In this document: positions 25,189 through 35,842 of the stretch, one piece after another
Position numbering within the stretch: the first letter of the stretch is position 1
Layout of the letters: the number at the start of each line of letters is the position of its first letter
NCBI GenBank assembly: GCA_019057815.1
Contig: JAHLWR010000008.1
Location: 32,001-96,000, forward strand
Origin: Candidatus Heimdallarchaeota archaeon
GTDB taxonomy: Archaea; Asgardarchaeota; Heimdallarchaeia; Heimdallarchaeales; Heimdallarchaeaceae
Reading direction: 5' to 3'
DNA length: 64,000 bases
Notes under the pieces: model-generated
The model's input: the letters and a program-made list of their open reading frames with translations, nothing else
Database searches by the model: none
Told to the model about the DNA's origin: nothing
Translations under genes and position numbers: made by a program

Positions 25189-27548
25189 ATGTGGGACAGA
25201 TTCAGTAAACCAAGATTTACCAAACATGCAATCATCATATTTCTTGTGATATTTTTTACTCCTTCTCTTATAATCCCCACCAATGTAGTCACTAATAATC
25301 CTTCGACAAATGAAATAATATTAAATCTAACTAAAACAATCAATCTAGAATTATCTACACCTACGGAACTAGAAAGTTTCTTAGATTCTATAATCCCCGA
25401 ACAGCTGACAAACTATTCCATAGCTGGTGCTACTTTTTCTATGGTTAAAGATGGTTCCATATTTTTTGAGAAAGGATATGGTTATGCTAATTCTGTATAT
25501 AAGTCTCCAGTTGTAGCAAATGAGACTCTTTTCAGGATTGGCTCAATTTCGAAGACATTTACTTCGATTGCAGTTTTACAATTAGTAGAAAAGGGATTAC
25601 TAGATTTAGATACAGATATCAATAGCTATCTTTCTGCATTCAAAATACCGGAAACGTATGAAGAATCTATAACTCTTAGACATTTACTAACTCATACAGC
25701 TGGTTTTGAAAGAGCGGTTTTTACAGTAATTCATGCTTATGGTCATTTAATTGAACCTTTAGAAGATTTATTAGCAGAAGGCATGCCAGATAGAGTCTGA
25801 CTACCTGGTGTAATTTCATCATACTCCAACTACGCACGTTATGATACTTGGTTAAAATTGCCAGAGGCTTTCTAACCGTCGTTTGAAGGGGGTTTCACCC
25901 TTGACCCCTCACGTGCGTTGAGGGGTAGTCACGAAGACTTTTCCATTATAGTTAGTGTATCATCACCACGGAGCTAGCTAGGCTCCCTATTTCATAGATA
26001 GTTAACTGAGGGACAACCACTTGTGTAGTTGCGAAACAGAAAAGTGACGATGATCACACTCTCTCTATCTCTGTATTTTTAGATTCATATATAAACCCGT
26101 AGAAAAAAAAGATTTCATTTTTACTCTTCTTCTACATCGTCATTTATGTAGTTAGAACGCGATGGCAGATTTAGCCAACTTTTCTGCACTCAGTGGACGA
26201 CGGTTTCGCTTTAGCAGGTTATATCGTGCAAGAAGTTTCAGGGAAAGATTTTGAACAATACGTGAGTGATGAAATACTAGCTCCTTTAGGAATGAATTCA
26301 AGCACTTTTTTACAACCTCTCCCAAGCAACCTCAATTCGCAAATGTCTTATGGTCATGATGAAAATAATGTTCCAGGTTTTTTTGAATATATCAGCATCC
26401 CCCCTGCTGGATCAGCTAGCTCTACAGCTTCAGATATGGCTAAATTTATGATTACATTATTAAACAATTGTAGTTATAATGGGAACAAAATCCTGGAGAA
26501 CACTTCAGTAGAAATGATGTTAAGTAACCAATTTCTAACTCATGAAAATCTTGCAGGGATTGGTTTAGGTGTTTATGAATTTGATGTGAGTAATCAACGA
26601 ATAATGGGACATGGTGGTGACACTCACTTCTTTCACAGTCGTATGATGCTGTTTCCTGAACTTAACATAGGTATTTTTGCTTCTTACAATAGTGTAGGTG
26701 GATCTATAGCTAGAACTGAACTTTTTAATGAATTTATAGAAGAATATTATCCTTTTTCCAAAGTGGACATAGAACCACTACAAGGATACAAAGGAAGATC
26801 TCGTAGGTTCACTGGGTTTTATGTCTCATCTAGAAGAATCTATTCCGATAAACCCACAGTTGCTGAAAGAGATTATATTGATGAGAGTTTTACTATAACC
26901 ACAAAAAATGGACATCTAATCTATAATGGCTTTCCTGATTTAGAATTTGTAGAAATTGAGCCAAATTACTTTGTGGAATCTACAGGTGAGTATTATCTTG
27001 AAATTGCTTTTATACAAGATAATAAAGGAAGAATAACCCATTTCTACACTAATTTCATAGGATCTCATTATGCTTTTGAAAAAGCTCATTCGCTCTATTT
27101 CGGATCTGAACTTCAATCAGGATTCATAGCTTCAGTTTTAGCATTAACTTTTATTTCATTAGCCTATTGGGGAATTAAAGGTTTAATTGGAGTTTTCAAG
27201 AAGAAAGAGAAAAATCCAAAAATCCAGAAGATAGCGAGATGGAGTTTTCTAGTTAATTTCATTCTTGCTGCAGTAATAGCTATAATGACTACTTTAAAAA
27301 TAAATAAAGATATTCTGCTTGAAATTGATACTGTCGAAGTTTTCAATGGACTACTTGTTTTTCCATTTTTGTATCTTTTAACTGTAATGGTTCTAATAGT
27401 TTTTACATGGTTTGCATGGACTGGAGTGAAAAACATAGAAGAAAAACCTTACTGGAAATTATCTGGGAGAATACACTACTCAATTCTTGTTCTACTCTCC
27501 ATTATTATGATTGGCATATTTGCATCGTGGCATTTCTATTTATTTTAA
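25189..27548 (+). pseudogene. Membrane-anchored serine hydrolase (beta-lactamase-like), disrupted by an in-frame TGA and a 368-bp insertion
   Basis: 5' part has RIGSISK (SxxK) and LRHLLTHTAG. The frame continues past TGA 25798-25800 as LPGVISSYSNY and resumes at 26202 as GFALAGYIVQEVSG...HGGD with C-terminal TMs. Removing the insertion restores YSNYGFALAG. Confidence 0.9.
25832..26199. mobile_element. Non-autonomous 368-bp insertion element with 3-bp core duplication (ACG), hairpin-rich
   Basis: Precisely interrupts the YSNY/GFAL codons; ACG at 25832-25834 and 26200-26202; higher GC than its surroundings; stems such as ACCCCTCA/TGAGGGGT (25904-25926). Confidence 0.8.
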
Positions 27549-28033: not shown

Positions 28034-28921
28034 TTAGTTTGACAAGATTCTATAATTTCCACTATTTGACTCCCATGTTTTAATGGAATTGTACAAATTA
28101 GTTTGTTTAAAATATTGGATCTCATATGCTAGTCTTAAATATGCAATTAAATCATCATTTTCTAACTTCGTATAGTGAACATTTCTTTTTACTCTAAATA
28201 TGTGTTTACCGAAAATTTCATGATAGCCTATAAGAAGTATTTCAATTAAATCATGTCCATTACAGACATCCCAGGGATCAGATATTTGTTTCTCAGATTT
28301 CTGAATTTCCGAACAGATTTGTGAGTAAGATACTTGAATATTAGTAGAATTTGAAATCACAGAGCTTACCAAATCTTGAATTTTGATTTCAAGCGTTTTT
28401 TTGCTGATAAACTTGCGGAATTTCAATCCTTGAATCTTTAAGAACCAAGCTTTTTTTATTGATAAATATCGAATGTATCCAACGTATCTCGCTGAATTAG
28501 TTATAATTTCTCTAATATTTCTTGTCCCCAAAAATTTTTGAAGTTTAGTTCTATCAGTTTTTTCTGTTAATAATTTTTCAAGAGCGGGTGATTTTAACAT
28601 AAGGGATTCAAAGTCGCAAGTATCTGTTCTTAGAAGATTAGCGCTATTAAATGTAAAACCTAGTAAATAATCTAAATCAGCATCAACTATTGCTAAAGTA
28701 CCTTTAAAATCCCTTTTTCCGAGAATTCTGGTTGTTTTTATTACATTATCTTTACCCCTAATAGATTCAACGTTACATAATGTTGAATCTATGAATTTTT
28801 CAAAAAACCGATAGTCTGTATCACCTTCAACTATTAAGAAACTTCCTTTGAAAGAAGATCTTAACATCATGATTTTATTAGCTAGGATGCTTGGAGAGCT
28901 ATTCATTGCAGGATGTGTCAT
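28034..28921 (-). CDS. DUF4435/TOPRIM-like nuclease (PARIS AriB-like)
   Basis: FLIVEGDTD, IVDADLD, DFESLM, CNGHDL; overlaps the 3' end of the upstream ATPase. Confidence 0.8.
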   Translation of the reverse strand: MTHPAMNSSPSILANKIMMLRSSFKGSFLIVEGDTDYRFFEKFIDSTLCNVESIRGKDNVIKTTRILGKRDFKGTLAIVDADLDYLLGFTFNSANLLRTDTCDFESLMLKSPALEKLLTEKTDRTKLQKFLGTRNIREIITNSARYVGYIRYLSIKKAWFLKIQGLKFRKFISKKTLEIKIQDLVSSVISNSTNIQVSYSQICSEIQKSEKQISDPWDVCNGHDLIEILLIGYHEIFGKHIFRVKRNVHYTKLENDDLIAYLRLAYEIQYFKQTNLYNSIKTWESNSGNYRILSN

Positions 28922-30281
28922 CAGGACCCTCCAAACACACAGTTAAATCCCATTTATCATTGATAATCTGAGGGGAATGAGTAGCTATAAGAAATTCCAT
29001 GTTATTAACTTCAGATATTTTAAAAAGATTATCTAGAAAATCTTGTTGCCAAGCAACATGAAGAGATAATTCTGGTTCATCAATAAGAATTAAAGAATCA
29101 GGTTTTGTCTCAAATAGAAGTTCATAGAAAACAACAAGCATATGTTTTTCACCTGAGGAGATATCTGATACATCAAGTTTCATATCTTCGTTTGTTGTAA
29201 GAATAAAACCTTCATTCTTATCAATTTTCAGTTTTTTGTATTTAAATCGCTTATTTATTATTTCAGTAAGCAATCCTATTCGGTTATATAATTCATCAAA
29301 GATTCCTAATTTCCGTTCTGTATCTTCTATATGCAATAAAAGTACATATTTTATTCGGTCATCGGTTGAGATTTCTCCTGATTTAATAGGTACAAGTTGA
29401 TGTTCTTGCTCTGCATCTAATATCCCCACATTTATTAGATTCAATCTCTGTTTTTCAAGTGCAGACATCTTGCTTACTAAACTTTCAATATCAATCTCAT
29501 TTCTTTCTCCCTTTTCCAAATAATCTATGAGTCTTCTAGGATATGTTCTGTCTAATGATTCAAATATCGTTGTGGATTCACTTCTCAAGTTTTTAATTTT
29601 TTGTGCAACTTCATTTGAATAATTCACCACTGCTTCTGATATCTTTTCTTCCGAATCTTCATCATCAAGTGTAAAAGATATTAATCTTTGTGTTTGAATA
29701 AATCTAACAGATATCTCTGATGTTAGCTCATGAAACCATTTAATCTCATCAGGTTTTGTTCTATCAAAAAAGAAATCTCTATCAGGTTGAATGCGACCGT
29801 AGCGACCATAATGTCTTTTACTTGATAAATCCCGTCTTCTTCTTATATAATCTCGTCTTCTACTGTATTCTATATGTTTAAAAGTTTCATATGTTAGAAA
29901 TTTTCCATAAAGATCTAGTAGTCTATCTTGTGCGTCTAATCTCTCAATTTTTCCATCAACACAGTAGTATGAACCCAAAACTCCTTTCGCAGAATTAGTA
30001 CCAGTTAATTCTATTTCAATAGCATCTAAATTTTTCTTTTTTTTAATTGTTTTTTTTGTAAAAATTAATTTGTTATCCTCAGAAAATTCAAGTGTTATCG
30101 TTTTAAAAGGGATGAAAACAAGTTCTTCATAGTTCTTATTAAAAATACTATCTAAAATTTTTAGAATTGTTGTTTTTCCATATCCATTTAATCCGTGAAT
30201 AATAGTAATTTTATCTTTCATTTCAATTTTATGATTGAAATAACCAAACAAACTATCAATATGAATACTTTTAATTCGCAT
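28899..30281 (-). CDS. ABC/AAA ATPase (AAA_15/21, PARIS AriA-like)
   Basis: Walker A GLNGYGKT, signature ISSGEK, Walker B LILIDEPE, H-loop ATHSPQ. Confidence 0.9.
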   Translation of the reverse strand: MRIKSIHIDSLFGYFNHKIEMKDKITIIHGLNGYGKTTILKILDSIFNKNYEELVFIPFKTITLEFSEDNKLIFTKKTIKKKKNLDAIEIELTGTNSAKGVLGSYYCVDGKIERLDAQDRLLDLYGKFLTYETFKHIEYSRRRDYIRRRRDLSSKRHYGRYGRIQPDRDFFFDRTKPDEIKWFHELTSEISVRFIQTQRLISFTLDDEDSEEKISEAVVNYSNEVAQKIKNLRSESTTIFESLDRTYPRRLIDYLEKGERNEIDIESLVSKMSALEKQRLNLINVGILDAEQEHQLVPIKSGEISTDDRIKYVLLLHIEDTERKLGIFDELYNRIGLLTEIINKRFKYKKLKIDKNEGFILTTNEDMKLDVSDISSGEKHMLVVFYELLFETKPDSLILIDEPELSLHVAWQQDFLDNLFKISEVNNMEFLIATHSPQIINDKWDLTVCLEGPDDTSCNE

Positions 30282-30370
30282 CATTAATAGTAAACTCAAA
30301 ATTAGCCTTGATAAACTTTATTACATTAATTGAACTAATCCACATTATTTTCAGTTTGATGTATTTTAAG

Positions 30371-31858
30371 TTACATATAAAATCTATAATGAGGATCAAT
30401 TTCTATTTCTTTGCTTCTAGCTTCTGACATGATTTTTCCAACTCGTCTAGACAATAGTAAAGTAACTGGCATATAGGAATTGAATTTTATATTGTTCCAA
30501 TCTAAACGTGATAAAGAGATAATTTCTTCTGCTATTTTATTAAGAGGTGTATCAAAAGAATATCTAGTAATTTCTACAGGAACAGGGATTCTAGGACCCG
30601 GGTATGTTCCCAAAGCAGGGATAAAACCAGTTAAATATAGAAAACTCTTATCTTCTTTTGAATCAGGTTCTATATGGGTACCCCTAAGAACAGGATATAA
30701 ACCATTTCTACAGAAACGTATGGTGGAATAATTATTTAACGTAATCATATCTACAATTTTGACATTTGCTTTATTTGAATAAAAACCCTCAATCTCTTCA
30801 CTATTGAAGTGTGAACTTTTGTGAATAACAATTCTCAGAGGATAAGTTTTCTTTAAACTACAATAGAAATCTAAAACATAATTCATTAAATTTAAGGCGT
30901 ATTCTTTTGATAACCTTGGATTTCTATCTTTTTTTGATGATTTCCATTCGAAAGGCTCTCCCCTTAGAATGAAACTTTCGCCTGTACTTAAGAAAACCTG
31001 TGCAATACTTGCTTGAAGAGATTGTTTTTCTTCACTAAAATCTCTAAAGAAACTAATCCCAATGTAGCATACATTGTCATCCAACTTAGTAAGTTTCCAT
31101 GGTGTTCCAAATGCTTTATAATAAACAGCAACAGCGACATTCCAAGCAAATGTGGCTGGATCTTCAGTAGGATATTCTGTTCTTTCCTTATCTGAAATTA
31201 TTTTATCCAATATAGATTCTATGGTATGAATCAAAAATAATTGTGTAGGAATTTTATATTTCATTCCTATTACCTTAATAATATTGTGAAAGTCAATATC
31301 TCCTTCAGCTTTGGATATACTTACGCTATCTGTTTTGTCAGCAAATTTAATTTTAATATCTTTAATATACTTGCGAGAGTACATATCAGTTATTTCTCTT
31401 GGAATTGAAATAAATATTATATCTGGGCGTGATTCTGCCTCCAAAATCAGTTTTATTTTATTCTCAAATAAATTAATTAAGGATACTCGTTGATCTTCTT
31501 TTCTGCTTATTTTTGTTAATGTTGTAATTTCCTCTGTAAAAATAAGTTGTTCCCAACTAACATCCGTTATTAATGAGAATAGTAGAGGTGATTTTTTACC
31601 CAAACCTGGAAAACCTAAGTTCCCATATGTTGATTTGTCAACTGGTTCAAGGGGATTAGACAATTCTCTTACAAGAGTTTTACATTTTTCTAAAGACTCT
31701 GCTGTTCCAACCACACCATAATTAATTTGTCTGTGATCGACATCTGCATTTAAGTAAGGTCCAACTGGTCCTCCTTTAAGAAGACCTATTCTTGGGTCTA
31801 ATGCAACAATGTTGTTCCCAAAATAAAGTTTAGATTCTTCTATTAAACTGGTTTTCAT
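30371..31858 (-). CDS. Short prokaryotic Argonaute (MID-PIWI, catalytically inactive)
   Basis: MID FHNIIK...IPTQ; AWNVAVAVYYKAFGTPWKL; PIWI CYIGISFF (first catalytic Asp replaced), RIVIHK, PVLRGT, YPGPRIPVP, LSRLDWN, PVTL, C-terminal YRFYM. GGAGG lies upstream of ATG 31858. Confidence 0.93.
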   Translation of the reverse strand: MKTSLIEESKLYFGNNIVALDPRIGLLKGGPVGPYLNADVDHRQINYGVVGTAESLEKCKTLVRELSNPLEPVDKSTYGNLGFPGLGKKSPLLFSLITDVSWEQLIFTEEITTLTKISRKEDQRVSLINLFENKIKLILEAESRPDIIFISIPREITDMYSRKYIKDIKIKFADKTDSVSISKAEGDIDFHNIIKVIGMKYKIPTQLFLIHTIESILDKIISDKERTEYPTEDPATFAWNVAVAVYYKAFGTPWKLTKLDDNVCYIGISFFRDFSEEKQSLQASIAQVFLSTGESFILRGEPFEWKSSKKDRNPRLSKEYALNLMNYVLDFYCSLKKTYPLRIVIHKSSHFNSEEIEGFYSNKANVKIVDMITLNNYSTIRFCRNGLYPVLRGTHIEPDSKEDKSFLYLTGFIPALGTYPGPRIPVPVEITRYSFDTPLNKIAEEIISLSRLDWNNIKFNSYMPVTLLLSRRVGKIMSEARSKEIEIDPHYRFYM

Positions 31859-33341
31859 TTTGTTCCTCCGGGAAATCAAGTAGTTCATTATCCACAATCT
31901 TTTCGAATTTCTTTAAGAGAAATGAATTTTCTATAGGGCTTCTATTGATTTTGATTTCTTTCAGTTTTTGTGGATCAATTGTTCTTAGAATTCTTCTTGT
32001 ATGAAATTGATTTTCTCTCTGAAAATCAGTCTGTGTCAATGGATCTGTAAAAATATCAAAATGCTCAAAAAGTACATAATACCAAAAACATATATCATTT
32101 AGTGCATTTGGATTATATCCCATGATTGATTTTCTGTATCCTCTTTCAATTCTTTCATAATCATTCACTGACACTGGAGTTTTTCCATCAGTTGTGAAAG
32201 TTTTTTGAGGTAAAATACAATAGTAAATATCTGAATTGATAATTTTTGTAGTAATAACAACTGATAAATGATAACAAAAATTAATCTTTTGTTCTTTCAT
32301 TCTAACAGATGCAACATCTCTAGAATGTAATTTGCTACCCTTTTTCCATCTAACACTCCGTTTTAAATATTTTGGGTATTGTAATGGATAAAACCATCTC
32401 CCTTTATTGTCAGTGTAAAGACCTCTATGTCTACAAAGTTTGTTTGCAGTAGTATTCAAAAGATAAATTAGTGTATTATGTTTGTCTCTTTCTTGAATCC
32501 AATCTACAATATCTATTTCTTCAATTGATGTTTCATCAACAAAATTAAGCAGGTTATTTTTTCTATTAAAAGAATAAAGTGATATCAGTTTTCCTTCAAA
32601 TAGAAGAAAAGGTGGTGCATACTTTATTTTAGAGAAAATTTCATCTTTTGTTCGTATACTAGTATTTGCTTGCCAGATTTTATCAATATTAGTTAACTGA
32701 ACTAAATTTGAAATAATATATTCTTCTTTTTTTTCTTGATATAATTCTTCTTTCAAATTCTGATAATTAGAAAAAATGTTGCTTGGATCAAATTCTTCAT
32801 TATAAATTTGGTCGATTTTTATTTTTAAGGAATCAATATCTGATTGATAAAGATCAATCTTTCCAAAAAATCCTTTTAAATCATCAATAGTTAAGGAGAG
32901 TAGCAGTTCTTTGTCTTTATCATCTTTTGTAAGGGGAATAATCTTAGTTATTATGCTTAATATTTCCTCATTGCTCAATTTATTCAAGAGAGATTTATGA
33001 AATACTTGATTCTTTGTATTTCTTGCAAAAATCATTAATCTGAATCTATCTTCTGGAATTCTATAAAAATAAGATAACGTGTAACCTAAAAATTCCTCCA
33101 AAAAACTGGAATCATTAAAGCTAAAATCTGACCATTTAGCTTCAATCCAAATCTCTCTGTCTATTTCGGTCTCATTATCAATAAAAATCAAATCAGGTAA
33201 GTGTCCTTCAACTTTTGAATCTGAAATAAATCTATGCCCCTTAGCTTCTAGATAAGCTCTAATATATTTCTTATAAGTTTCAGAATTTGCAGTTTTTGCT
33301 TCTCTATCACCAAGTAAATTGTAATAAGGCAGATGTCTCAC
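31830..33341 (-). CDS. PD-(D/E)xK nuclease-APAZ effector partner of the short Argonaute
   Basis: N-terminal HLPDLIF...WIEAKW motif; C-terminal region from EYIISNL through FTTDGKT and YNPNALNDICFW fits an APAZ domain; stop overlaps the pAgo start. Confidence 0.78.
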   Translation of the reverse strand: MRHLPYYNLLGDREAKTANSETYKKYIRAYLEAKGHRFISDSKVEGHLPDLIFIDNETEIDREIWIEAKWSDFSFNDSSFLEEFLGYTLSYFYRIPEDRFRLMIFARNTKNQVFHKSLLNKLSNEEILSIITKIIPLTKDDKDKELLLSLTIDDLKGFFGKIDLYQSDIDSLKIKIDQIYNEEFDPSNIFSNYQNLKEELYQEKKEEYIISNLVQLTNIDKIWQANTSIRTKDEIFSKIKYAPPFLLFEGKLISLYSFNRKNNLLNFVDETSIEEIDIVDWIQERDKHNTLIYLLNTTANKLCRHRGLYTDNKGRWFYPLQYPKYLKRSVRWKKGSKLHSRDVASVRMKEQKINFCYHLSVVITTKIINSDIYYCILPQKTFTTDGKTPVSVNDYERIERGYRKSIMGYNPNALNDICFWYYVLFEHFDIFTDPLTQTDFQRENQFHTRRILRTIDPQKLKEIKINRSPIENSFLLKKFEKIVDNELLDFPEEQNENQFNRRI

Positions 33342-33682
33342 TTCCCTAATGTGTCTAATATAAAAAATAAGTCATATAAAAATATAAACTTTTACTCTGA
33401 GTAATTATATTTTCGAGAATTTTCATTTTACTGCAAAGAGTACTATCTTCTCATATAGAGGAAGTTCCAAGAAGTAGACCTTGATATAAGGATTTAATAT
33501 TAGTAGAACACAAAAATTAGTTCCATACGTAAATGTTTGAGATAAAAACTGACCCTATAAATTCTTAATAGAAAAAACGCATAAAATTTTAATTTTCTAT
33601 AAATAGAAGCTATAATGATATTAAATACTTCAAGCTCTATGTTTAAGAAAGGTTTTATAATTAAGATGTTTCTTTGTTTTTA

Positions 33683-34750
33683 ATGATAAAAGATCTGATT
33701 ATAAAAAACTTCAAATCTGTAGAAAATCTTGAATTAAGTTGTTCAAAGTTCAATGTATTCATAGGAGAACCTAACGTAGGTAAATCAAACATTTTAGAAG
33801 CTTTAGGTATTTATTCATCACTTCTTTATAATAAACACACTAAAGATCAAAAGCTAATAAGTAAAGAATTTGTCAGATATGAAAATTTATTAAATTTATT
33901 TCACAACAATTTTATCCAGAAAGATATAGAGATAATAACAGACAAAAGTAAGATTTTGATAGAAGCTAAAGAAAATTACTTCAAATACTCGGTCTGTAAA
34001 ACAGAATTAGGCATAAAACAGGACGAAAATCAAGAGATGTACAGAGACATAATAAAATCACAATTACTCTTTGAAGCTGAATTAGAAAATGATGGAAAAT
34101 ATCATTCAGGTCTCCATAAGGGTAGAATAAAAGAAGAAGAAAAATTGAAAACCTTTTTACCTAATTTTAAAATGTATAAACATATCGAATTAAATCAATT
34201 TTTATCCAAAGATTTTGCATTTTTAAATCCACCTTCTGGAAATAATCTTCTTACAATTCTACAAACACATGAGGATTTATATGAATATTATAATGATATT
34301 TTGCATCCTTTTAATCTACGTTTGATGCTCAGAGAGATTGATGGAAAAATCGAGTTTTTAAGAGATGCAAAAGGTAAATTGATTCCTATTCCTTTTAGCT
34401 TGATTGCAGAAACTTTTCAGCAACTTTTTCTAATATTAGCATCAATAGAAACAAATGAAGATTCAATTATAGTAATTGAAGAACCTGAAACTCATGTTTT
34501 CCCTAAATATACTAAAAAAATTGCTGAAATGATTGCAAAAAATGAGAAATCAAATCAATTCTTTATCTCTACGCATAACCCCTATTTTTTGATATCTTTA
34601 ATTGAAAAAGCAAAAGAAAAGGATGTTAGCATTTTTGCTGTTGAATTCGTAAACAATGAAACACAAGTTAAGAAACTGGATAATGCTGATATTCAGCTAT
34701 TATTAGAGGGTGAAGATCCTTTCTTTAATATTAGAAAATATTTTGAGTAG
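33683..34750 (+). CDS. AAA_15/AAA_21-family ATPase
   Basis: IKNFKS, GEPNVGKS, IEEPETH, STHNPY. Confidence 0.88.
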   Translation: MIKDLIIKNFKSVENLELSCSKFNVFIGEPNVGKSNILEALGIYSSLLYNKHTKDQKLISKEFVRYENLLNLFHNNFIQKDIEIITDKSKILIEAKENYFKYSVCKTELGIKQDENQEMYRDIIKSQLLFEAELENDGKYHSGLHKGRIKEEEKLKTFLPNFKMYKHIELNQFLSKDFAFLNPPSGNNLLTILQTHEDLYEYYNDILHPFNLRLMLREIDGKIEFLRDAKGKLIPIPFSLIAETFQQLFLILASIETNEDSIIVIEEPETHVFPKYTKKIAEMIAKNEKSNQFFISTHNPYFLISLIEKAKEKDVSIFAVEFVNNETQVKKLDNADIQLLLEGEDPFFNIRKYFE

Positions 34751-34757
34751 ATTTCCA

Positions 34758-35243
34758 ATGATCTTAGTTGAGTGCGATCCTGATGAAGTACTAGTAAAAA
34801 CTTTGATTCCCAATCTTACAAAAAATGATTATTCACATGCAGGTAATAATACTGGAGTTATTAAAAGGTTAATTAAAAAAACCGAAGGAACGGGACATAT
34901 TGGTATTATTGATAAAGATTCTGGATCAATACCACCTGGGTATTTTAATAAATTTGATTTAGTTCAAGAATGGGAATCATTAAACATTGAGCTCTTGAAA
35001 GCACCAAATAATGCAAAATTAATCGTTCTTTATCCCAATTTGGAAGGGTGGAGTATAAATGCAGCTCACTTCATCCATATAAAACTTAAAGACTATAGTT
35101 TACCTGAATCAGAAAAAGAATTGCATAAAATAATAAATGAAAAACCGAATCTAATGAAATTTGAAAAACTTATAACAGATTTAGAAAAAAAGAGTAAACA
35201 CATACAAGAATTAAAAGCAATCTTAATGGAATATCATAAATAG
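34758..35243 (+). CDS. Small TOPRIM-like partner of the ATPase
   Basis: ILVECDPD, IGIIDKD and PNLEGW acidic motifs; 7 bp after the ATPase stop. Confidence 0.65.
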   Translation: MILVECDPDEVLVKTLIPNLTKNDYSHAGNNTGVIKRLIKKTEGTGHIGIIDKDSGSIPPGYFNKFDLVQEWESLNIELLKAPNNAKLIVLYPNLEGWSINAAHFIHIKLKDYSLPESEKELHKIINEKPNLMKFEKLITDLEKKSKHIQELKAILMEYHK

Positions 35244-35391: not shown

Positions 35392-35640
35392 TTAGATTTT
35401 TCTTATCATATCAATTAGTTTATCTTTTGGAATATTATTCCAGATTGATATTTTTGATAATATGTCAGTTAATGTTCCTTTTGCAATTTCAGGGTGTCTA
35501 GGGACGGTAATATTATGTTCCCCAGCTTCAGTTGTTTTTCTTAGACTCACGTGACTCCCCCTTTGCTTAATTATCTTGTAACCTAATTTCGATAACATCT
35601 TGATTAAGTGATTACCGCTAATTACTGGTAACTTTGGCAA
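35392..35640 (-). CDS. hicA: HicA-family toxin
   Basis: LGY...QRGSHV, TVPRH, GTLTDIL. Confidence 0.9.
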   Translation of the reverse strand: MPKLPVISGNHLIKMLSKLGYKIIKQRGSHVSLRKTTEAGEHNITVPRHPEIAKGTLTDILSKISIWNNIPKDKLIDMIRKI

Positions 35641-35842
35641 CTGAACCTACCTCAATTTCTGAAATTGAAAGGATTCTTATCTCTTCTCCTTTGTTTAAAA
35701 TATCTTCAAAATGGACTTCTACTGCTTCTTTAATGTTATCCATCAAGTTATCTAATGTATTACCTTGAGTAAAAATATCTACTCCAATTCCTCTTGCACA
35801 CCAGAAGTCTTCATCTTTATATATCTCAAATTTGACTAACAA
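35618..35842 (-). CDS. hicB: HicB-family antitoxin
   Basis: FTQGNTLDNLMDNIKEAVEVH; overlaps hicA. Confidence 0.88.
   Translation of the reverse strand: MLVKFEIYKDEDFWCARGIGVDIFTQGNTLDNLMDNIKEAVEVHFEDILNKGEEIRILSISEIEVGSVAKVTSN

Follow-up and report, generated by a model that had tools for sequence, protein, structure and literature searches.

The locus described here raises the question of whether two defence modules that adjoin each other in an archaeal genome form a single composite immune system or are independent neighbors. It occupies positions 28034-33341 of a stretch of 64,000 nucleotides (nt) from Candidatus Heimdallarchaeota archaeon (assembly GCA_019057815.1, contig JAHLWR010000008.1, positions 32,001 to 96,000), hereafter called the window, and contains four co-directional genes on the minus strand. 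These genes are predicted to encode a nuclease-APAZ protein (hereafter the partner), a short Argonaute, an AriA-like ABC ATPase, and an AriB-like TOPRIM nuclease. The original prediction, which was made from the letters of the DNA, regarded the first pair as a guide-activated nuclease system that may be guarded by, or wired to, the second, PARIS-like pair. The present analysis instead points, with a probability of about 0.8, to two independent abortive-infection-type modules that are neighbors in a variable defence island of an Asgard archaeon of Heimdallarchaeaceae type; their adjacency is then a matter of island clustering and not of a shared mechanism. The window belongs to contig C27 of a 3.7 Mb genome that is 95% complete. 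A flanking thioredoxin-reductase-like gene had its closest named relatives in Candidatus Heimdallarchaeota/Heimdallarchaeaceae (69-77% identity) and showed 58% identity to that of Candidatus Heimdallarchaeum endolithica, which agrees with the Asgard origin that had been suspected.

None of the four open reading frames (ORFs) contained internal stops, and their products, as listed in 5' to 3' gene order, were 503, 508, 466, and 295 amino acids (aa) long. The partner gene (31830-33341, minus strand) encodes 503 aa, of which residues 1-185 were assigned to a Cap4/LmuA-like PD-(D/E)xK domain and residues ~200-470 to APAZ. The most probable start of the Argonaute gene (30371-31858, minus strand) is the ATG at 31858, which is the 14th codon of the listed ORF, rather than the TTG at 31897, because the homologues are all about 495 aa long (477-500) and their coverage of the query begins at residue 14; the product from this start is a MID-PIWI-only protein of 495 aa. 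Similarly, the most probable start of the ATPase gene (28899-30284, minus strand; PADLOC AriA, Pfam AAA_15/AAA_21) is ATG 30284 or 30281, since residue 7 is where the Pfam AAA_15 model sets in, and the gene encodes ~461 aa from ATG 30284. It is followed by the TOPRIM gene (28034-28921, minus strand; 295 aa; PADLOC AriB). With the corrected starts, the partner and Argonaute genes overlap by 29 nt (31830-31858) and the ATPase and TOPRIM genes by 23 nt (28899-28921), while a spacer of 86 nt (30285-30370, minus strand) separates the Argonaute stop from the ATPase start; the gap shrinks to 71 nt if the TTG start of the list is used. The layout that was originally described, with overlaps within both pairs and a gap of about 90 bp between them, was reproduced.

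The Argonaute matched the PADLOC pAgo_I model (455 positions) end to end at 3.3e-128 and had no NCBIfam match. It also matched, over its full length, the solved short Argonautes of SPARDA (9qbp_B, 9jsb_A, and 9qbl_B) and SPARHA (9om4_B), which are 471-485 aa long and were themselves covered end to end (E-values of 3e-60 to 3e-55), whereas the match to SPARTA Argonautes was weaker (~1e-35 to 1e-40). Being closer to the SPARDA/SPARHA proteins than to those of SPARTA, it was therefore placed among the S2B-type short Argonautes. Its length of 495 aa fits the size range of a protein that consists of MID and PIWI only, without an N or PAZ domain (~450-510 aa). Motif reading and alignment to the inactive SPARDA Argonautes revealed GISF where slicers carry G-x-D, and IHKSS where slicers carry R-D-G. 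The serine of GISF, a motif that had been pointed out in the original prediction, is nearly invariant in the Argonaute family, and the lysine of IHKSS is conserved. Given these motifs and its homology with inactive Argonautes, the PIWI domain is thus predicted to lack the catalytic tetrad. Four MID positions, H204, K208, Q219, and K261 in ORF numbering (H191, K195, Q206, and K248 in the 495-aa form), fall in invariant or nearly invariant columns, and we take them to be the pocket in which the guide's 5' end is bound, going by Argonaute MID motifs.

This Argonaute is the only one in its genome. Homologues of it were found in 27 of 400 Asgard genomes, which represent 19 of 85 genera; published surveys of Asgard Argonautes already cover short forms (PMC11217426, PMC11291487). 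That the Asgard Argonautes under discussion are mostly of the long kind, as the original prediction noted, does not render this short one unusual. Several Asgard genomes contained Argonaute homologues inside frames of 940-1020 aa (G365:C16, G370:C84, G321:C286, G318:C9, G316:C25, and G312:C10; loci L167, L172, L176, L182, L183, and L188), which suggests fused effector-APAZ-Argonaute proteins like those of the S1A type.

The partner had no Pfam match (E up to 0.1) and no NCBIfam match. Among the PADLOC models, Aga_REase_Archaea (9.8e-30, residues 31-450) and Aga_REase-PNTD1-PNTD2 (2.8e-28) were matched, and the REase-, SIR2-, and TIR-PNTD1-PNTD2 (APAZ) models all aligned to residues ~200-450. 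The only solved chain that was matched by sequence was the HNH-APAZ protein 9om4_A, over the APAZ part (1.2e-05). The AlphaFold2 model of the full-length partner had a predicted local distance difference test score (pLDDT) of 80.9, and its top Foldseek matches were the DREN-APAZ chains of SPARDA (E ~1e-14), followed by the partners of SPARHA (HNH-APAZ) and SPARTA (TIR-APAZ). The presence of an APAZ fold, which had been set beforehand as the critical test, was confirmed when the C-terminal 280 residues superposed on solved APAZ domains with template modeling (TM) scores of 0.69-0.74 and root-mean-square deviations of 3.5-4.8 Å.

In an alignment of 38 partner homologues from related loci, G35, D50, E67, K69, and H358 were invariant, and E14 was invariant or nearly so. 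D50, E67, and K69 lie in the PDLIF...WIEAK segment that was quoted in the original prediction, and can be read as a textbook PD-(D/E)xK nuclease signature in which the catalytic residues are intact. Modeled alone (residues 1-190), the nuclease domain reached a pLDDT of 90.6 and displayed an alpha-beta-beta-beta-alpha-beta core, with D50 and E67/K69 on the adjacent second and third strands; a helical extension comes after the core. The best structural matches of this domain were LmuA (Lamassu), HerA-DUF4297, Avs3, Cap4 (CBASS), the FokI cleavage domain, and HamA (Hachiman), with Z-scores of 7.4-9.1 over ~130-160 aligned residues; DREN chains were absent from the top 50 matches of the isolated domain. 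The full-length model ranks DREN-APAZ chains first, yet the portion that superposes well is the APAZ part. The domain is therefore read as a restriction-fold nuclease of the Cap4/LmuA kind; it may still be a DREN domain, although nothing in the top 50 matches speaks for one. Taken together, the PADLOC matches, the matches to solved structures, the fold, and the invariant residues support the original assignment of the first pair to the short-Argonaute systems with a PD-(D/E)xK nuclease-APAZ effector; within these, the pair is placed here in the S2B/SPARDA-SPARHA lineage.

Among the characterized systems, SPARDA from Novosphingopyxis baekryungensis, Xanthobacter autotrophicus, and Enhydrobacter aerosaccus (PDB 9jsb, 9qbl, 9qbp, and 9qcc; PMC12205087, PMC12774872) shares with the present pair a two-gene operon in which a nuclease-APAZ gene precedes that of a MID-PIWI Argonaute, as well as the closest solved Argonaute, a superposable APAZ domain, and a PD-(D/E)xK effector with an intact catalytic triad. 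On the other hand, the nuclease domain of the present partner has no DUF4365/DREN match in Pfam at the same threshold, and is nearest to Cap4, LmuA, HerA-DUF4297, Avs3, and FokI-type domains, with which it shares the helical extension; in addition, the host is an archaeon, and the partner is only 13-20% identical to the SPARDA partners. In SPARDA, a guide RNA recognizes the target DNA, filaments form, and a collateral nuclease activity follows (PMC12205087, PMC12774872). SPARHA from Acidithiobacillus caldus (PDB 9om4; PMC12738770) resembles the present pair in its Argonaute (3e-58), in its APAZ domain, to which the match of the partner to 9om4_A is confined, and in the same operon logic, but its effector is an HNH protein instead of a PD-(D/E)xK nuclease. 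The PADLOC class Aga_REase_Archaea with a class I pAgo provides the best model for the partner and does not differ from it in architecture, although this partner is only 20-30% identical to most of its relatives. No experimental study of the archaeal subtype with a restriction endonuclease (REase)-APAZ protein was found in a literature search.

A homologous partner was located directly upstream of the Argonaute in the relatives, wherever similarity allows its detection. Full-length partner homologues preceded short Argonautes in loci of Asgard archaea, Bathyarchaeia, Nanohaloarchaea, Nanoarchaeia, and Methanolobus. In bacterial relatives, with Argonautes of 30-35% identity (L050, L064, L068, L073, L012, L021, and L027), the partners were SMEK-domain APAZ proteins (PF21941, E-values of 1e-38 to 1e-49), an effector type that, to our knowledge, is still uncharacterized. 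The partners of the three nearest relatives, whose Argonautes are 51-56% identical, aligned over the APAZ half only; these are proteins of 425 aa (L162, 8705-9982), 590 aa (L082, 4323-6095), and 370 aa (L083, 8883-9995), the first of which had no Pfam match. Because the bacterial relatives carry SMEK and the nearest relatives share only the APAZ half, the N-terminal effector domain appears to be freely swapped in this lineage and to have been exchanged recently among the nearest relatives.

By analogy with SPARDA and SPARHA, the presumably inactive MID-PIWI Argonaute would form a heterodimer with the APAZ domain of the partner and would be loaded with a short 5'-phosphorylated guide, which is probably RNA. 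Pairing of this guide with the DNA of an invader would then lead to oligomerization. The oligomers would bring the N-terminal PD-(D/E)xK domains together, and these may cleave nucleic acids indiscriminately, so that the infected or plasmid-bearing cell would be stopped. Homology, folds, and the intact catalytic and putative guide-binding residues form the basis of this proposal for the first module, and the working steps are borrowed from the two characterized systems.

The second pair fits the architecture of PARIS. The ATPase matched Pfam AAA_15 over its full length (3.9e-22) and AAA_21 (4.3e-14), and PADLOC AriA (6.4e-30 and 8.8e-22), with full-length coverage of the AriA model. Its best solved matches were AriA of PARIS, 8ux9_B and 8v45_A, both at ~2e-18 (2.3e-18 for the best; 464 aa), and it contained a Walker A motif (GLNGYGKTT), an ABC signature (SSGEK), a Walker B motif (LILIDEPE), and an H-loop (ATHS). 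The TOPRIM protein matched PADLOC AriB (3.6e-22) over 229 of the 236 model positions. In a family of 12 members, E32, G33, D36, K57, D80, D82, D103, G222, and D224 were invariant, which includes the TOPRIM glutamate (E32), the DxD motif (D80 and D82), and a conserved G-H-D motif. The DUF4435/TOPRIM label that was originally given to this protein holds for its second half: TOPRIM is borne out by the AriB match and by E32, D80, and D82, whereas Pfam DUF4435 was not matched by the protein itself, which had only a weak OLD-like TOPRIM match (0.0038) and no NCBIfam match, and was reached by 4 of the 12 relatives (best 4e-14). When a profile of the 12 members was compared with solved chains, the TOPRIM domain of RNase M5 was matched marginally (0.14).

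In each of the 12 other family loci examined, the AriB-like gene was directly preceded by an AriA-like gene; two of these loci are additional sites in this genome, and the rest come from 10 other Asgard genomes. AriB-like proteins were present in 11 of the 400 Asgard genomes, and putative PARIS systems (n = 43) have already been reported in Asgard genomes (PMC13700489). The two additional pairs of this genome (G000:C33:22314-23159, L204 and L207; G000:C23:25897-26676, L205 and L208) encode TOPRIM proteins with 42% and 29% identity, respectively, to that of the window, and neither pair is near an Argonaute. This genome therefore contains three PARIS-like pairs, on contigs C27, C33, and C23. Like PARIS of Escherichia coli B185 (PDB 8ux9 and 8v45-8v49; PMC9122126, PMC11464382), the pair in the window consists of a ~460-aa AAA_15/AAA_21 ATPase gene followed by an overlapping TOPRIM gene for ~295 aa, and is conserved as a unit. 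It differs in its archaeal host and in a TOPRIM protein that has diverged too far to be matched to Pfam DUF4435 or, by sequence, to solved AriB. In PARIS, a hexamer of AriA retains AriB up to the detection of a foreign protein, and the freed AriB cleaves lysine tRNA (PMC11464382). By analogy with the E. coli system, the ABC ATPase of the window would restrain the TOPRIM nuclease; the sensing of a viral protein would release the nuclease, which may then cut an essential RNA, for example a tRNA. We know of no anti-restriction triggers such as Ocr among the viruses of this host.

An ABC ATPase combined with a TOPRIM protein is a widespread design that is common to PARIS, OLD, Gabija, and AbiL (PMC11464382), and the pair may accordingly belong to another member of this group (OLD, AbiL, or Gabija-like), with a different trigger or substrate. 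This is consistent with the absence of a DUF4435 match for the TOPRIM protein itself, with its weak matches, which are confined to OLD-like TOPRIM, DUF3226, and AbiLii, with its failure to match any solved chain by sequence, even when a profile was used, and with the good scores of the ATPase against PtuA models. However, among solved structures the ATPase is matched best by AriA, a protein of equal length, the PADLOC AriB model is covered nearly end to end and the AriA model fully, relatives of the TOPRIM protein do match DUF4435, and the order, overlap, and sizes of the genes agree with PARIS. A function other than that of PARIS is therefore considered unlikely, and PARIS-like is a fair name for the pair, the strict membership of which rests on hidden Markov model evidence. 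The architecture that was named in the original prediction is upheld by the AriA and AriB matches.

The proposal of a PARIS-like pair that acts as a guard of the Argonaute system or is wired to it, for example by firing on a viral anti-Argonaute or anti-restriction protein, was weighed against loci that were searched with all four proteins (80 from genomes, 80 from metagenomes, and the contigs of the closest relative). No AriA/AriB homologue was found in any fetched related Argonaute locus, including all 97 loci with at least 2.5 kb of downstream sequence, six of which have Argonautes of 44-56% identity, so that the four-gene order did not recur among these loci. The closest relative (56% identity) had no AriA/AriB beside its Argonaute, which is instead followed by an unrelated ORF of 544 aa; a methyltransferase and PLD-helicase pair adjoins. 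Each pair is conserved as a separate two-gene unit, and two more AriA/AriB pairs in this very genome stand without an Argonaute. The APAZ protein has been described as the only protein that is specifically associated with short Argonautes (Koopal et al., PMC9097488), which leaves no third protein tied to them in the literature, and no paper describing a functional link between Argonaute and PARIS was found in a literature search. The original prediction had held that the linkage would be ordinary clustering if homologous Argonaute pairs never occurred together with this ATPase/TOPRIM pair and the two were transcribed separately; homologous Argonaute pairs without this pair are what was observed, and separate transcription is plausible.

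Several points weigh against the independence of the two modules, or against the identity that is assigned to them here. The tblastn searches could miss very divergent relatives of AriA and AriB. All four genes run in one direction and the pairs are only 86 nt apart, so that co-transcription by read-through is possible, and the spacer, as read from the Argonaute stop, contains no run of at least 5 T and hence no obvious oligo-T terminator. Among 399 other Asgard genomes, two (G246 and G195) carried both systems, which corresponds to an odds ratio of 3.8, a nominal enrichment that is not significant (Fisher p = 0.13; related genomes are not independent samples). In G195, both pairs were situated on one strand of a single contig (C84), ~9.5 kb apart. 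With regard to the identity of the modules, the TOPRIM protein has no sequence match to solved AriB, and the nuclease domain of the partner is not detectably a DREN domain by Pfam or in the structural comparison, so that the details of its activation may differ from those in SPARDA.

A composite of four genes would account for the adjacency, the shared direction, the short gap without a clear terminator, and the one further genome in which both pairs occur within ~10 kb on the same strand. However, the pairs of G195 are set apart by eight unrelated ORFs with a minimum of 100 aa, some of them nuclease genes of the HNH, NucS-like, and GIY-YIG kinds, and those of G246 are on different contigs. 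A candidate promoter element also precedes the ATPase gene: the spacer contains AAAGTTTAT at 30311-30319, 27 nt upstream of the ATPase ATG, and the same 9-mer stands 43 nt upstream of the start of the partner gene (33384-33392). Judged from its position alone, this may be a promoter of the B recognition element (BRE)/TATA type; its three copies in the window, all on the minus strand, are no more than the 3.45 that are expected by chance. Given the absence of the pair from all 97 loci, the separate occurrence of the pairs elsewhere, the Argonaute-free pairs in this genome, and a co-carriage that is not significantly enriched, the guarded or wired system is not borne out and is regarded as very improbable. 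There is just as slim a chance that in a few Asgard lineages both pairs are co-transcribed as a layered defence, in which a viral protein that obstructs the Argonaute system would trigger the ATPase/TOPRIM pair. The island of G195 (L206, G195:C84:108000-127900) comprises an AriA/AriB-like pair, an HNH protein, two NucS/YhcG-type PD-(D/E)xK proteins, a GIY-YIG protein, an REase-APAZ protein with a short Argonaute, and an HFX_2341/CARF-like protein.

The surroundings of the two modules were interpreted as a defence island because of their low G+C content, a second ATPase/TOPRIM pair, and an adjacent HicA gene. The G+C content is 26-30% across 28-40 kb, compared with 31-36% in most of the remaining window. 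Immediately upstream of the Argonaute operon and divergent from it, a second ABC ATPase gene with a small ORF was located on the plus strand (33674-35243); the ATPase has 358 aa and matches PADLOC AbiLi (7.3e-23) and Pfam AAA_21 and AAA_15. The small ORF overlaps it, has its likely start at Met17, and contains the TOPRIM-like motifs LVECDPD and IIDKD. The two genes look like a minimal pair of the OLD/AbiL/PARIS type, judging by these motifs and matches, and no homologue of the pair was found in any fetched Argonaute locus. A HicA toxin gene (Pfam 1.8e-13), with an overlapping upstream ORF of 74 aa in the antitoxin position, follows on the minus strand (35392-35842).

The Argonaute is absent from a genome of the same genus (G011), and none of the four genes is on the syntenic contig. 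There, the right flank is retained with an identity of 94-95% and the HicA region with one of 91%, the latter occurring twice on one contig (G011:C66), while unrelated genes replace 28-35 kb. In two complete genomes of the same family (G014 and G015), the two flanking genes are far apart and the comparison of synteny is uninformative. On the other side of the locus, a gene of the beta-lactamase family (PF00144) on the plus strand (25189-27548) appears to be split into an ORF of 203 aa, which corresponds to profile positions 1-107, and an ORF of 451 aa, which corresponds to positions 148-313, with ~390 nt (25801-26192) between the halves; either an insertion or the breakage of the gene may explain this. 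The window contained no tRNA gene, and no convincing direct or inverted repeats flanked the region around 22-42 kb. That one or both modules are decaying remnants without a current function, as the variability of the island and its absence from the sister genome, the gene debris nearby (including the split beta-lactamase-family gene), and the GTG start of the partner gene in place of the usual Met-Pro start of the family might indicate, is hardly credible given four full-length frames without internal stops, the retention of all catalytic or nucleotide-binding residues that are invariant in the respective families, and intact gene overlaps that are typical of coupled translation.

The main value of two independent modules at this locus is a clean negative, in that two known defence modules that adjoin each other in one genome are not to be read as a new system. 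Both are further members of two known kinds, and the subtype with an REase-APAZ protein is already cataloged in PADLOC. The remaining interest lies in a well-preserved archaeal short-Argonaute system with a Cap4/LmuA-like effector, and not with the DREN, HNH, TIR, or Sir2 effectors that have been studied so far. As a modest alternative reading, the archaeal Cap4/LmuA-like nuclease-APAZ effector may represent a mechanistically distinct and uncharacterized branch of short-Argonaute immunity. With relatives in at least 19 Asgard genera, it would be a sensible choice if the subtype is to be studied biochemically for the first time. Furthermore, the three PARIS-like pairs in a single genome add to the picture of Heimdall-group archaea as carriers of several abortive-infection modules of the bacterial type.

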